Positions 22,001 to 28,000 of a DNA stretch of 57,073 nucleotides are shown here, in pieces. Position 1 is the first letter of the stretch. Each line of letters starts with the position of its first letter. The stretch lies in the IMG/VR virus record IMGVR_UViG_2923307698_000004; one strand, 5' to 3'. Source of the DNA: a virus (Duplodnaviria; Heunggongvirae; Uroviricota; Caudoviricetes). The position numbers were made by a program.

Positions 22001-25000
22001 TGGTCCTTAAGGCGTTCACTCAGATACTGTGCATTCTGCGCCAGCGCCTGTCTGTAAAAATCCTCACTGATATCCCCGGTCTGATACTGAGACTGAAGGT
22101 CCGCATCCTTCTGGCGGAAGCTGTCGCGGATCTGCTGCAACTCCCGCATGCGTTCCCTGGCTCGTTCTCCCTGCCCGTATCCCAGCAGTTCGGCTTCATT
22201 TGATGCACGCGCAGCCACATTATCATTCTTCAGGGTCTCTTCCCGGGATCGCAACTGTTCCCGGATTTTTTGCTGGTCAATCAGGGCCGCGTTACGCAGC
22301 AGTTCCTGCTTCTGCATCTCCGTCAGGGTTTTCAGTTCGCCCTGCGCAGTCTGGTACTTCAGCTTCGCCAGCTCTGTATTCTGACCCGCCAGTGCCAGTT
22401 GCTCTTTCTGCTGCTTCAGTAGCCGGGAAAAACTGTCTTCCGCTTTTTCCGTCTCTGATTTTCCACCCCGGGATTTAGGTTTGTTCGCCTCGTTATTACG
22501 CCAGGCTTCCAGAGCATTACTGATATAACGCTGTCTCGCCTCCTGATACGAATCCCCCACAAAACCAAGGTCATCCGCCGCATACCCCAGCCGGGCACGC
22601 TCTTTTTCCTCCCCCTTCAGTCGGGACAGGGCCAGCTCACGTTCTGTTTTTGTCAGGGCGCTCTGCTGTTTATCATCCAGGGTGGCCTGCGGCAGCCGTA
22701 ACGGTACATTCACCAGTCCCTGACGCTGCTGAAGCAGTTCATTCCCCAGCCCCAGCAGACGGTTGAATTCCGTATGCTGACCGTTCATAACCAGCATGGA
22801 CTGGTACACCTTATTCTGCTCTGCCGCCTGCTGACGAATTAACGCCACACGACGGTCTTCCAGCCCGGCAAGCACATTCTGAATGGACTGCACTTTTTCC
22901 TGCATCTGTGCCAGACGGGACTGCTCAACGGCAAGCTGCTCTGTTGCCTGAGAAAGCCCTTCCGTCACGGTCTTCACCGATGTCAGATGGTTTATCATGA
23001 ATCCGTCACCGGTTGTCCAGCCAGGGTTAGCCAGAACATACTGATATCCAGCGATTTTTTCCTGCAGGGATTTCACCCGGCTGGCCTGTTCATCAATCAG
23101 CCGGTTCTGCTCTGCCAGCGCCGCCCGTGTTCGTCCTTCATTATCTGAGGCTTCAGGCAAAGACATTGACGGCGTTTTATGCGCGATTTCATCTATCGTC
23201 AGTGCATACTGGCGCGCTGACTCCCTGGCCTGCTCCTGATTCTGGTACAGCGTATACCATGCTGCTGCCCCCAGCATCACCAGTCCGGGTACGCCACCAA
23301 CCAGTCCCAACGCACCAGTCATCAGACGTGAGCCCACCGCCGTTGTACTGTTCAGCTCATTCTGGGCTGCGGTTCTGGCAGCAATATTTCTGTTCAGGCG
23401 TTCCTGTGTGGCCGCCAGACGGGCTTCTGCAGCAATCTGCATCTCCGTCCCGCGGGCTGCCGCCACAGCCTGCTGTGCACGGTACACGGCTGCCCTTGCC
23501 CGCGCCGTGGCAATCTGCGTCCCCCTGAGCTGTGCTTCCGCCAGTGCCACTTCATTACGTGCTGCCGTCACAAGTCCTGCCGTGGCAGACACCGCTCCGG
23601 AGGCCATATTGCCAAAGTACCGGGCAACCCCGACGGCAACCAGCGCCCCCGCGGCTGTTGCCACATTATCAATATTACCGGCAACACCGTTCAGCACGCC
23701 GGAGAGCGTTTTTGTCACCCCGCTGGCTTCATTCGCGCCACCCACCCCAGGCCATAAAGGCGTTTTCCACCTTTGTGATCCCGTCAGAGACCGTTTCCGG
23801 CATGGCGGCATATTCATCACGCAATACCCCCAGCTGGCTGATTAACGCAGGAACGACTTTATCCGCCGTCAGTTTGCCGTCGTCCGCCATCGCCTTAAGG
23901 TCTTTACGGGCCACGCCCATACCCGCAGCCAGTGCACGTACGATCCGGTCTCCGCTTTCATTGACCGAAATTAAATTCCTCACCGCGTAACACACCCTGT
24001 GCCAGCGCCTGGCTGAACTGGGTGATCACCGAGCCCGCCTCTGCCGTACTGGCACCGGAGATTTTCAGCCCCGTGGAAATGGCCTCCGTCACCTTCAGCA
24101 CATCATCAGCACTGTAACCATATTCACGCATTGAGGCTGCCGAGCGGGCAAACAGGGCCGCATTATCTGAAAATGCCGTGCCCGTCCGCTGGCTGATATC
24201 CATCAGCACTTTCTGTGATGACGAAAATTCATCGGATGACTGCGACGCCTGTTTCAGTCGGGCATTCACGGAACTCCATTCATCGGCCAGAGAAATCAGG
24301 TGTCCGGTGGCAAAGGCACCGGCAAATGCCCCCGCCGTTCCGGCAGCTGAGCGCGGATTTCCGTCAACTGGCTGTTCAGCTCAGCCCAGGGCGCGTCGCT
24401 GCTCCCGGGCGACTGCGGCAGCCTGACGCCCGCCATTCTGCAGGGTCCGGTAATATTCACTGCCCATGCGGGAAGCCCGCTGGATCTCCGACTGGAATGA
24501 CTGCGAATTTGCCGAAATTTTGATAATCAGTTCACGTAACGTCGCCATTCACCTTTCTCCGGGCGTAAAAAAACCGACTCAGCGGTTCTCATCATTCATG
24601 ACTGTGGCTGCGAAGCTCAGCGCGTCTTCCAGCGCCGCAACGGATCACCTCCGGCTATCCTCATCCTCGCCCAGCAGAGCATGGCGTCCTTCAGTGCAAC
24701 ATTCATCCCCTGTGCCCCAAAACCGCTTCACGATCTGTGCATTACGGATATCCCCGGCGCTCATCACCCAGCGGGGATACCCTGTCGAACTCCATCCACA
24801 TCATCGCCTCGCTCACACTCAGGCTGTGCCGCAGTTCGGATAAGGTGCGCCCAGACCGGAGCGCAAGTCGCATCAGAAAGCGAATTTCCGGGCGGGCTAC
24901 TTTTTTCTGGCCGACTCTGCATCAGCGATCAGTTCCAGTGCCTGACGCAGCAACCGGGCATGTACCGGACCATAGACGGCCAGCACCTGCTCACGGTCGC

Positions 25001-28000
25001 GAACACCCGCTGCAGATCCGTATCACACAGGACATCGCAGAACAGCGTCACATCCGCTTCCAGGTTACGGCGGGTTTTCGCCACCACCGACAGGGTATCG
25101 TCATCCTCTCCATCACCATTGAGCACTTCCTGCCACAGATACCAGGCCTCTGCCGAAGGCTCCCGCAGCACCACGCTGACATTACCCCATTCCGGCACCT
25201 TCACCGTTTTATGACGAAACCCTGACAGTCTGGCCAGCGCCAGCGTTTTCAGATCCTTTTTCATGATGTCGCATCCGGCACGGGCAGCCCGACAACGTTC
25301 AGGATCCGGTCACGCCAGGGACCACTCAGCACATGAAGTCGTGACGCTGCCGTGATTTCCCGACCGGACTGACCGCGCACCCAGATGCGGATTTCCGCCT
25401 GCGCCATTTCCGCACCAGACTGCATCCGCTCCCGGCTGCTCCTGCCACGGATATCCGCATGAATTTTCCCCGCATGACACCCATTCTTCCGTCATTTCTC
25501 CGGCAGCGTTACGGGTTAACACCGGGTTCAGAACACTTATCATCTGTGTCAGACGACCTGCAGATATTGCCATTCCCCCTCCTCATAACACCGTCGGACA
25601 ACGCAAATCGTAAATCAGCACGGAAACAGAAAACGGCAGCTCCCCCTGAAGCAGTTCTTCCCGCTCCGCAAGATCCGGATTCCGGTACAGCATCCCGGTC
25701 AGTCGCATGGCAGCCCCTTCATCCGGGTTAATGCCTCGCCCGGGATCAGTTCACCGTCCTCACGGATCACTTTATCCCGGCTGCCCTGAATGTAGGCCAG
25801 CAGCACGGCGGTAGCCTGACGAACCTTGTCCATCAGCATGTCATCATCCGCGTCATGGTCGACACGCAGATGTGCCTTGATCTCTTCCAGTGTCAGTAAT
25901 GCCGTCATTTTCAGCCTCCTGCATCCCGCCCACGTTTTGCAGCCAGGGTCCAGGCTGATGAATGAGCTTCTCCGGGTTTATCTTCGGTCATACTGTTGCA
26001 GTGCCACAGCGAGCCCCCCCACGTCACCGTATCGCCGGGGTGGTAGGTTTCACCGGCTCTGAACACACCGCGGTAGAGCATCACCGGCAGGGAAAATGTT
26101 TTTTCCGTACGCTGGCCACTGCTCTGCCGGACCACCACAGAGAACAACCGCTCACCCGTCATGCTGACGTCAATATCCGCCACCCCGTCAACCAGGCATT
26201 CCCATCCCGCATCCCGTGCGTTTTTTCATACGCCCGCCAGAGTCCGCCCTGGTGTGTGGCATACGTGCCCCGGGGAAAGGATTTTTGATCGTCAATGGCG
26301 GGGAGTATTTCCAGAGCCGTGGCATCACGCCCGTCCTGCGGAGCCGGCAGGGCACTCACCGCATCCAGAACCGCCTTCTGCAGAACATCCGGATCGTAGT
26401 CACGACCATCACGCGGAACATGAATATGGCTTACCGCCTCCTTCACCATCTGTTCAAGCATCGGACGCACATCATCCGGGGTGAGACTTTTACCGTCTGC
26501 CGGCTGCGGAATATTTGCGACCGCATCATTCACCGCCTTCTGCAGAACATCGGGATCATAGTCACGACCGTCGCGCGGAACAGGGATATGGCTTACAGCC
26601 TCCTTCACCATCTGTTCAAGCATCGGACGCACATCATCCGGGGTGAGACTTTTACCGTCCGCCGGTACCGGAATATTCGCAACCGCATCATTCACCGCCT
26701 TCTGCAGTACTTCCGGATCGTAGTCACGACCATCACGCGGAACAGGGATATGGCTTACAGCCTCCTTCACCATCTGTTCAAGCATCGGACGCACATCATC
26801 CGGGGTGAGACTTTTACCGTCCGCCGGCTGCGGAATATTTGCGACCGCATCATTCACCGCCTGCTGCAGTACATCCGGATCATAATCACGACCATCACGC
26901 GGTACCGGAATGGCCCCCACAGCGTCATCCACCATCGCCTGCAGAACCGGACGCACCTCATCCACCGTCACATGCTTCTGTAATACCGCCGACAGGGAAG
27001 TCAGTTTCTCTTCAAACGCTTGTGCCTGCGAGGCCATCTTCCCCTCAAATGTGCGCTGTAAATCCGCCAGCACCGTGGAGAATTCTTCTCCCAGTGCACG
27101 AATAATGGACAGTTCCCGTTCCGTCATTTTCTCAGTATCCCCCCTGAACATCGCTTTCACCGCATCATGCTCTGTTTCACTGATTGCCTTATTACCGTCA
27201 GATGCGCCGTCAGGCAGCTGTGATGAAACTGTTTTCCCGGCAGACGCGAACGGATCCTCACGGGCATCACGACGGGACAGCGCCTCCAGACTGTAGTTCT
27301 GCTGCTGAAGATACAGTGCATCACCGCCGGCCAGGGGCGGCAGGTTCTCCCGTTTACGGGCCTCATTGGGCGTGAGAAGCGTATTTTTCACCGCATCCCC
27401 CAGCGTTTTCATGCGCCGCTCACTGTCCATTCTCAGCAGCGTGGTGACATCAAATTCTGTACTCTCGTTTTCCCCCGTTTCCAGCGCCTCATCCAGTAAC
27501 AGTTCAATGGACTCAATCAGCGTCTGCAGGCACTGGGAATAATACTGCTGCTCCAGCGCCTCCACGTTGTCACTGGAAGGCGGTTGTCCCACGCCAATCT
27601 TGTAGGCCGGGACACGGAACACCGAACAGACAATTTCAGCGGTCATCTTCAGTTGTTCCACCGTCTGCGCATCCACAGGTGAAAACGTCGTGGGGTTGTA
27701 TTTTGCCCCGTTGCTCAGAATGGCCGTTTTCCCCGCATTTTCGCCTGTATACCCGCTGTCCCAGTTGCTCTTCAGTTTTTTCGCATTTTCTTCCGTAATA
27801 CTGCCGGGGATCTCAATCACCCCGGACGGCCTGCCGCCATTTCTGAAAAAAGACGTCGAATTTTCCTGAATATGATGCCCCTGCGTGGCCGCCAGCCCGG
27901 CGGCATACACCGGCGGCAATCCTATAAGCGGATGAAAAAAACAGTTAAACCGGTCGTGGATCACTTCCCGGGCAGGCACCGTCACCGCCTCCGTGATCCC

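Follow-up and report, generated by a model that had tools for sequence, protein, structure and literature searches.

The locus considered here poses the question of whether a run of broken reading frames between the portal and tail tape-measure genes, and the absence there of any gene for the major tail protein, reflect the decay of a defective prophage. The window, by which we mean the whole stretch of 57,073 nucleotides that was analyzed (IMG/VR record IMGVR_UViG_2923307698_000004, Caudoviricetes), was read in this way in the initial annotation. Both the frameshift cluster and the lack of a major tail gene were found at this place, and neither is attributable to chance.

The window is a PPompW prophage, a lambdoid element with type III effectors integrated at ompW, and its host, as identified by exact matches of its proteins, is the EPEC O76:H7 strain FORC_042 (CP025318.1). 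Its integrase region matches that of a relative whose integrase adjoins ompW, and its effector genes are espM1, nleG, nleF, nleH1-2, nleA and a DUF1076 gene; the 21-bp sequence att-in-PPompW is absent from the window. In ompW-type integrase region and effector genes it resembles the PPompW prophages with an exchangeable effector locus, among which FORC_042 was named as a carrier of the ancestral seven-effector locus (Nakamura et al., bioRxiv 10.1101/2020.11.04.367953). According to the same study, deletions and IS insertions make the late regions of PPompW prophages variable, and O145:H28 strains yielded no detectable packaged PPompW DNA; the study describes neither the deletion discussed below nor any frameshift cluster. 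An IS3-family element (IS629/IS1203-like; 41403..42712, no strand assigned; 1,310 bp with a 3-bp target duplication) interrupts the late-gene antiterminator Q behind its codon 36. Because this element splits Q, the prophage is defective in any case, whatever the status of the deletion. The insertion is an independent lesion, and base-calling error cannot have caused it.

The head-tail module is of the phage 2851 type. Phage 2851 (Pankowvirus pv2851), related long-tailed Stx1a/Stx2c/Stx2a phages and EHEC prophages are 95-99% identical to the window at the nucleotide level and, the deletion apart, have the same gene order: protease-capsid fusion, portal, connector, head closure, gp10-like gene, terminator, Ig-domain major tail, G, T, tape measure, M, L, K, I and J. 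Unlike this group, the window has no gp10-like, terminator, major tail or stx genes, and it shows 18 small indels distributed over portal, connector, head closure, G, T and tape measure. The closest intact copy, L001 from E. coli FORC_028, reads tape measure (1080 aa), T (93 aa), G (124 aa), major tail (238 aa), gp17 terminator, gp10-like gene, head closure, connector and portal (859 aa). Against such intact relatives, which are ~99.8% identical, positions 23745-26206 of the window differ by 17 one-base indels, one 7-bp deletion and one 1,615-bp deletion. Blastn alignment with L001 places the +1 insertions at 23745, 23968, 24385, 24606, 24756, 24856 and 25468 and the -1 deletions at 24350, 24641, 24647, 24656, 24670, 24723, 24727, 24853, 25714 and 26206, and three further references recovered the same indels. 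All 18 small indels fall inside 2,462 of the 9,309 aligned bases (p ~4e-11 under uniform spread); from the deletion junction they reach ~1.5 kb on its left side and 0.95 kb on its right. Alignment to intact relatives, which the initial annotation had suggested, thus gave a count of the small indels and located the tail-tube module in the deleted part.

All the affected genes lie on the minus strand. The tape-measure gene (21304..24548), orthologous to the 1080-aa protein, is split into four reading-frame pieces by breaks at 23745 (+1), 23968 (+1), 24350 (-1) and 24385 (+1). All four breaks fall in its first 267 codons, in agreement with the earlier observation that several frame changes are needed early in this gene, and the ORF at 21304-23820 (838 aa) is its intact C-terminal body. 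The worst-hit gene is that of tail assembly protein T (24596..24873; 93 aa in relatives), in which ten one-base indels crowd into 255 bp (24606-24856); nowhere is the cluster denser. T had been left out of the list of damaged genes, in which G, head closure, tape measure and a connector-like gene were included. In the gene of tail assembly chaperone G (24897..25264; 124 aa in relatives), which has the 7-bp deletion at 24999, the start codon (25262-25264), the slippery heptamer A_AAA_AAG and the stop codon are all intact. The heptamer is a programmed -1 site followed by TAG; in the intact relative, T is already open in its frame 22 nt before the G stop is reached, and the window has the identical sequence. 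This is the arrangement of the G/GT chaperone pair of lambdoid and HK97-like siphoviruses, with the heptamer at the end of G and T open in the -1 frame overlapping the G stop, and it is found in the phage 2851 group as well. Since the slippery site is intact, one G-to-T frame change is programmed and therefore not a lesion.

Further along, the head-closure remnant (25261..25573) carries a +1 at 25468 (C4 to C5). Its 3' end is replaced by the deletion junction, at a cost of the last 46 nt (~14 codons), and the resulting 54-aa junction ORF is GenBank AUX02901.1. The head-tail connector gene (25583..25908; 108 aa in relatives) has a -1 at 25714 (C5 to C4), and the portal gene (25911..28489; 859 aa in relatives) a -1 at 26206 (C4 to C3), which leaves a 776-aa ORF (26159-28489) and puts the last 98 codons into another frame (ORF 25911-26183). 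The portal gene had been taken as intact at 776 aa, ending at 26159; it is in fact frameshifted, with its true end at 25911, and the ORF at 25911-26183 that had been described as connector-like is the portal C-terminus.

The deletion junction lies at 25268..25269 (no strand assigned), 4 nt upstream of the G start codon. Relative to four references, 1,615 bp are missing (L001 4987-6601), and with them the major tail subunit, the gp17-like tail terminator, the HK97-gp10-like gene and the 3' end of head closure. Structural genes of collinear intact relatives are thus absent, as in prophages made defective by deletion of morphogenesis genes. When the intact proteins were used as tblastn queries, no homologue of the major tail, terminator or gp10 genes was found anywhere in the window, and the reported lack of major tail and terminator genes between portal and tape measure corresponds to this gap. 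Homology at the junction amounts to 1 nt if exact, or to 7 of 9 positions if imperfect (GACCCATCC / GTCGCATCC). Because the junction is non-homologous, a mis-join of overlapping sequences is impossible as its source. This, the published variability of PPompW late regions and the IS element in Q were counted in favor of a real deletion; by the last of these, the prophage was already decaying, and real decay is therefore plausible. Counted against it is that the deletion, like the indels, is private to one assembly. No further copy of the junction turned up among 5,426 complete E. coli genomes, in IMG/VR, or in the GTDB representatives and JGI metagenomes; the repaired junction protein of 103 aa has no record at all, and the 54-aa ORF actually present is recorded from a single contig. 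Taken together, the deletion is probably real.

The alternative is that the 1.6-kb gap and the indels are all artefactual, two error-rich contig ends in a multi-copy module having been abutted or mis-trimmed with the loss of 1.6 kb; in that case, the head-tail and tail-assembly module of the actual prophage would be undamaged. The indels flank the junction on both sides and thin out with distance, as they would in poorly covered contig ends, a single nucleotide of exact homology is what abutted rather than overlapped ends would leave, and the gap, its junction absent from all the collections scanned, is as private as the indels, which points the same way. However, the 270 bp directly left of the junction are free of errors, with indel density peaking 400-650 bp away, and 1.6 kb is normally spanned easily by long reads. 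Moreover, late-region deletions are common in PPompW, and the bona fide disruption of Q makes real decay plausible. We therefore consider it rather unlikely, if worth keeping in mind, that the deletion and the indels have this common origin.

The nature of the small indels is a separate matter, on which their statistics are informative. The 2.46 kb of the cluster hold 18 small indels and 2 substitutions. Set against the cluster, the counts elsewhere are 0 unpaired indels and ~60 substitutions in the flanking parts of that alignment (Fisher p = 5e-16), 3 indels and 26 substitutions where the window is 99.9% identical to relatives (p = 2e-8), and 12 indels and 169 substitutions at window positions 29778-41402 (p = 7e-16). 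Each one-base indel, 17 of 17, alters the length of a run of identical bases, and the indel rate per run grows from 0.2% where a base stands alone to 16-25% in runs of 4-5. A rate that rises with run length is the signature of run-length miscalling. The earlier remark that several shifts sit at homopolymer runs holds in the sense that all one-base changes alter run length, but only 2 of the 17 are in runs of at least 5, and the runs of 7 and 8 bases in this stretch have kept their length. Indels aside, the stretch is almost identical to the intact genes of relatives, which means that no divergence followed the supposed inactivation. The changes are thus confined to indels, depend on run length and sit in otherwise near-identical sequence, the combination expected of local consensus or assembly error. 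Across the other ~54 kb, only 3 indels separate the window from 99.9%-identical relatives, all at long poly-A runs, which confirms that the lesions are local and no part of a uniform read-error background; at the indel relative to relatives in nleA (9378), the window carries an intact 441-aa gene. An association with Dam or Dcm motifs was considered as well, but with 3 of the 17 indels beside GATC or CCWGG (by eye) it was not convincing.

In neutral decay, substitutions far outnumber small indels. If all lesions were real and due to the ordinary local pseudogene decay of a defective prophage after the loss of its tail genes, the ratio of 18 to 2 would have to be squared with the 12 to 169 and 3 to 26 found elsewhere, of which it is the reverse. 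Decay of this kind would also be expected to spread lesions across all genes released from selection and to have some of them in common with relatives. Instead, all lie in 2.46 kb, while the adjacent 3.3 kb of the tape-measure gene, J, capsid and terminase are spared, a confinement that decay leaves unexplained, and no relative has any step of the supposed process. The prophage is demonstrably defective through the IS element in Q, the high quality of the rest of the window excludes global read error, and replication slippage also yields indels that alter run length; yet the longest runs, which are the most prone to slippage, are the unchanged ones. Decay is accordingly an improbable source of the frameshifts. 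From the initial reading of local decay rather than uniform read error, we retain the local character of the damage, the missing tail-tube module and a defective prophage, the latter by the IS element in Q; the decay origin of the frameshifts is given up in view of the indel excess, the spared neighbors and the privacy of the lesions. A gene-conversion patch from an old decayed remnant was likewise rejected, as the cluster contains just 2 substitutions where such a patch would have introduced many.

In E. coli, DNA breaks are associated with a DinB-dependent mutagenesis that produces -1 frameshifts in nearby runs, with one or a few mutations per event rather than 17. One could envisage a real one-off burst of this sort, in which error-prone repair synthesis at a double-strand break left both the 1.6-kb deletion and +/-1 changes in run length over ~2.5 kb, in the 1-1.5 kb flanking it, almost without substitutions. 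It would suit an indel cluster that is co-located with a non-homologous deletion junction and lies on both of its sides, with fewer indels at greater distance. However, the 17 one-base indels exceed what such events produce, 7 of them are +1 insertions, untypical for the DinB-dependent pathway, the density maximum is not at the junction, and accompanying substitutions are lacking. We give this explanation hardly any weight.

Comparison with other assemblies bears on the same point. The T stretch has no copy above 97.0% identity among 2,899 places in 5,426 complete genomes, and of the small indels compared with these 2,899 homologous copies, all are private to the window's assembly except the C5 to C4 change at 25714. 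That one recurs in assemblies visibly full of long-read errors, and many of these contain the same truncated 69-aa connector product. The fragment proteins AUX02898.1 and AUX02901.1 (FORC42) are on record from a single contig. In the gene-position index, no exact products were found for the truncated portal, the G fragment, the head-closure fragment, the junction ORF or J, and exact matches to capsid and L came only from short draft contigs that end before the region. The module occurs at a median of 4 places per genome, and in other long-read assemblies it is annotated as 'frameshifted' or carries unpaired -1 indels. That wrong homopolymer lengths can survive polishing within repeats has been documented (Polypolish paper, PMC8812927). 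The cluster resembles such errors of long-read and hybrid assemblies in being indel-only, dependent on run length, confined to a multi-copy element with clean unique flanks, and restricted to one assembly. It differs from them in that insertions are about as frequent as deletions and in that its sites are other than the recurrent ones of nanopore-like assemblies. With roughly half of its indels being insertions, the profile fits no single platform's textbook pattern. Textbook systematic errors of nanopore sequencing were rejected, since only 1 of the 18 sites is shared with the five error-laden assemblies of this module that were compared, which are themselves deletion-biased and uniformly affected.

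Localized consensus or assembly error, an option beyond the initial choice between decay and uniform read error, thus fits better than evolutionary decay, and the small indels are most likely consensus errors in a locally under-polished, multi-copy prophage module. Judging from their pattern, we lean towards errors of consensus or assembly rather than mutations for the indels, alongside a 1,615-bp deletion that is probably real. Two kinds of lesion would then meet at 23.7-26.2 kb, one discrete deletion and scattered changes in run length. As genomes of such strains contain the head-tail module repeatedly, only the few reads spanning the private junction could have served to build the copy that has it, and the stretch may therefore have been left locally under-covered or unpolished while its flanks were corrected. 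Against this stands that the neighboring tape-measure body and portal are equally conserved and multi-copy, yet clean, so that an unpolished repeat would need boundaries that are not apparent; the density maximum, 400-650 bp from the junction rather than at it, also fits poorly.

The locus therefore holds no new biology and opens no new question. It does call for caution: in a 'complete' genome, a cluster made up of indels alone and located in a multi-copy prophage module mimics pseudogenization, and its genes would then be entered as successive pseudogenes and taken as a case of prophage decay. The deletion, if real, would leave a tail-less prophage locked in the chromosome. It would be one more ordinary case of an effector-carrying PPompW immobilized by tail-gene loss, here in addition to the IS element in Q, and would fit the published variability of the late regions of these prophages.

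The minus-strand genes at 15-33 kb of the window constitute a lambdoid prophage late operon. In megablast searches, the stretch 23300-26600 was matched at 95-99% identity by long-tailed Stx phages, phage 2851 among them, and in 1,247 of 5,426 complete E. coli genomes, where the module has a median copy number of 4 per genome. This 3.3-kb query stretches over ~4.9-5.1 kb in every intact record. The intact gene order, taken from the annotated copies of E. coli FORC_028 (the closest intact relative) and phage 2851, runs from tape measure (1080 aa), T (93 aa), G (124 aa) and an Ig-domain major tail protein (238 aa) through a gp17 tail terminator and an HK97-gp10-like protein to head closure (116 aa), connector (108 aa) and portal (859 aa). 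Precomputed Pfam assignments of the homologues are concordant on both the tail side (TMP_3, Phage_tail_T, Phage_TAC_1, Tail_completion_gp17) and the head side (HK97-gp10_like, Phage_HCP, Phage_connect_1, Phage_portal). The portal gene carries a 162-bp tandem repeat (~3.3 copies, 26370-26963) coding for repeated 54-aa units, and none of the short-read draft contigs with an identical capsid gene extends past the portal gene, several breaking off near the start of the repeat. The protease-capsid fusion gene encodes 645 aa in the window and phage 2851 versus 592 aa in FORC_028, the difference being a 151-bp segment close to the 3' end of the gene (28753-28903).

The initial annotation had described a cluster of frameshifts and the lack of a major tail or tail terminator gene. 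Both observations were correct, as alignment of the window to the FORC_028 copy displays the lesions and tblastn finds none of the lost genes. Confirmed against phage 2851 and two further reference copies, the lesions at 23745-26206 comprise 18 small indels (seven +1 insertions, ten -1 deletions and one 7-bp deletion at 24999) and a 1,615-bp deletion (junction 25268/25269). The tape measure gene has four indels, all inside its first 267 codons, while T, which had been overlooked, has ten in 255 bp. G bears the 7-bp deletion, head closure has one indel and has lost its last 46 nt, and connector and portal have one indel each. The major tail, terminator and gp10-like genes are wholly lost through the 1,615-bp deletion, and tblastn with the intact proteins found no trace of them in the entire 57-kb window. 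Portal had been considered intact; it is in fact shortened to 776 aa by the -1 at 26206, and the ORF at 25911-26183, previously called connector-like, is the portal C-terminus. Among the frame changes read as lesions, the indels are confirmed but the single G/T frame change is normal: the slippery site A_AAA_AAG-TAG is present and unaltered, and the T frame is open in -1.

The cluster had been interpreted as local decay, a reading that is only partly supported. It is indeed local (chance of all 18 events landing in 23745-26206, p ~4e-11), but decay fits poorly with lesions that are private to one assembly and a balance of 18 indels to only two true substitutions relative to FORC_028 in the 2.46-kb stretch (24321 and 24577; the mismatches at 25269 and 25271 are part of the junction overlap and lie outside this count). 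In the same alignment, the flanks have 0 unpaired indels versus ~60 substitutions (Fisher p = 5e-16 against the stretch). Over the 26 kb where it is 99.9% identical to relatives, the window shows 3 indels, all at long poly-A runs, versus 26 substitutions (p = 2e-8), and 29778-41402 shows 12 versus 169 (p = 7e-16). Plain neutral decay of a defective prophage would predict mostly substitutions, hits in J, the tape-measure body, capsid and terminase too, and intermediate states among relatives; none of these is seen, and we regard it as very unlikely.

Each of the 17 one-base events makes a same-base run longer or shorter, with event rates of 0.2% at single bases, 1.4% in runs of 2, 3% in runs of 3 and 16-25% in runs of 4-5; the longest runs in the stretch, of 7-8 bases, are unchanged. 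Small-indel density peaks 400-650 bp off the junction, not at the junction. A real mutational burst, for example through break-associated error-prone repair, would be of interest if true, and we hold it to be even more improbable than decay. The small indels are instead most likely errors of consensus calling or assembly, made where one part of a multi-copy module was thinly covered or left unpolished. Homopolymer-length errors that stay in repeats after polishing have been documented (PMC8812927), and 'frameshifted' genes in the same module are also found in other long-read assemblies. The mix of insertions and deletions is roughly even and matches no single platform's profile.

Across 2,899 places homologous to the T stretch, the best is only 97.0% identical, and this stretch is undamaged in practically every other copy. 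The only window indel seen elsewhere is the connector C5-to-C4, and the assemblies that share it have deletion-type errors throughout the module, which identifies it as a site of repeated miscalling. Those error-laden assemblies have none of the window's remaining 17 indel sites; a textbook nanopore error profile is therefore ruled out for the window. Several unpaired -1 deletions also affect the portal, connector, gp10/terminator and tape-measure genes of another complete genome, CP027544.1, and residual assembly errors may thus generally concentrate in this module in multi-prophage strains. By exact sequence match, the 54-aa junction ORF is GenBank AUX02901.1, a 103-aa tape-measure fragment is AUX02898.1 (FORC42_2624) and the window esterase is AUX02917.1, each recorded from one contig only, that of E. 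coli FORC_042.

The exact-sequence look-up returned no record anywhere of a repaired junction protein (deletion kept, +1 insertion removed), and thus the 1.6-kb deletion is also without independent support. Its junction is absent from all 5,426 complete E. coli genomes, as well as from IMG/VR, GTDB representatives and JGI metagenomes. Located 4 nt upstream of the G start codon, the junction is non-homologous (1 nt exact, 7/9 imperfect), which excludes mis-joining through an overlap. Either a real deletion by illegitimate recombination or two contig ends abutted in assembly could give such a junction, and from the sequence we lean modestly towards a real deletion.

FORC_042 is an EPEC O76:H7 strain from pork meat (Korea, 2013; CP025318.1) according to published papers, and its ompW prophage was named as bearing the ancestral seven-effector exchangeable locus of PPompW, prophages whose late regions vary via deletions and IS insertions (bioRxiv 10.1101/2020.11.04.367953). 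Window 1-12000 is this exchangeable effector locus, with DUF1076 (NleG-like), espM1, nleG, nleF, nleH1-2 and nleA amid IS and integrase remnants; the published 21-bp att-in-PPompW site was not found within the window. The window starts and finishes exactly at the end of a CDS, with the stop codon of a 216-aa DUF1076 gene at 1 and that of the integrase at 57073, which suggests that it was excised as a predicted prophage along gene coordinates. The nleA gene (9109-10434) is intact at 441 aa, and it is annotated as 'frameshifted' in two O26 strains with 99.9% identity there, H19 and 99_0849. Indels relative to these relatives lie at 8900 and 9378; the latter, a one-base difference in an A-run and one of the three poly-A indels counted above, is a true polymorphism or else a mistake in the H19/99_0849 assemblies. 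At 40292, near the phage tRNA genes, a poly-C tract lacks 5 of the bases present in a 99.6%-identical relative.

The late antiterminator gene Q (40818-41402 and 42712-42820, minus strand) is split after codon 36 by a 1,310-bp IS3-family (IS629/IS1203-like) element at 41403-42712, with terminal inverted repeats beginning TGAACCGCCCCGG and a 3-bp target duplication, CAT. Judged from sequence, the indel cluster is most likely an artefact in a prophage of a known defective type, an ordinary finding. The insertion in Q should abolish late-gene expression regardless of the state of the tail genes, and the prophage is therefore defective whether the deletion is real or not.
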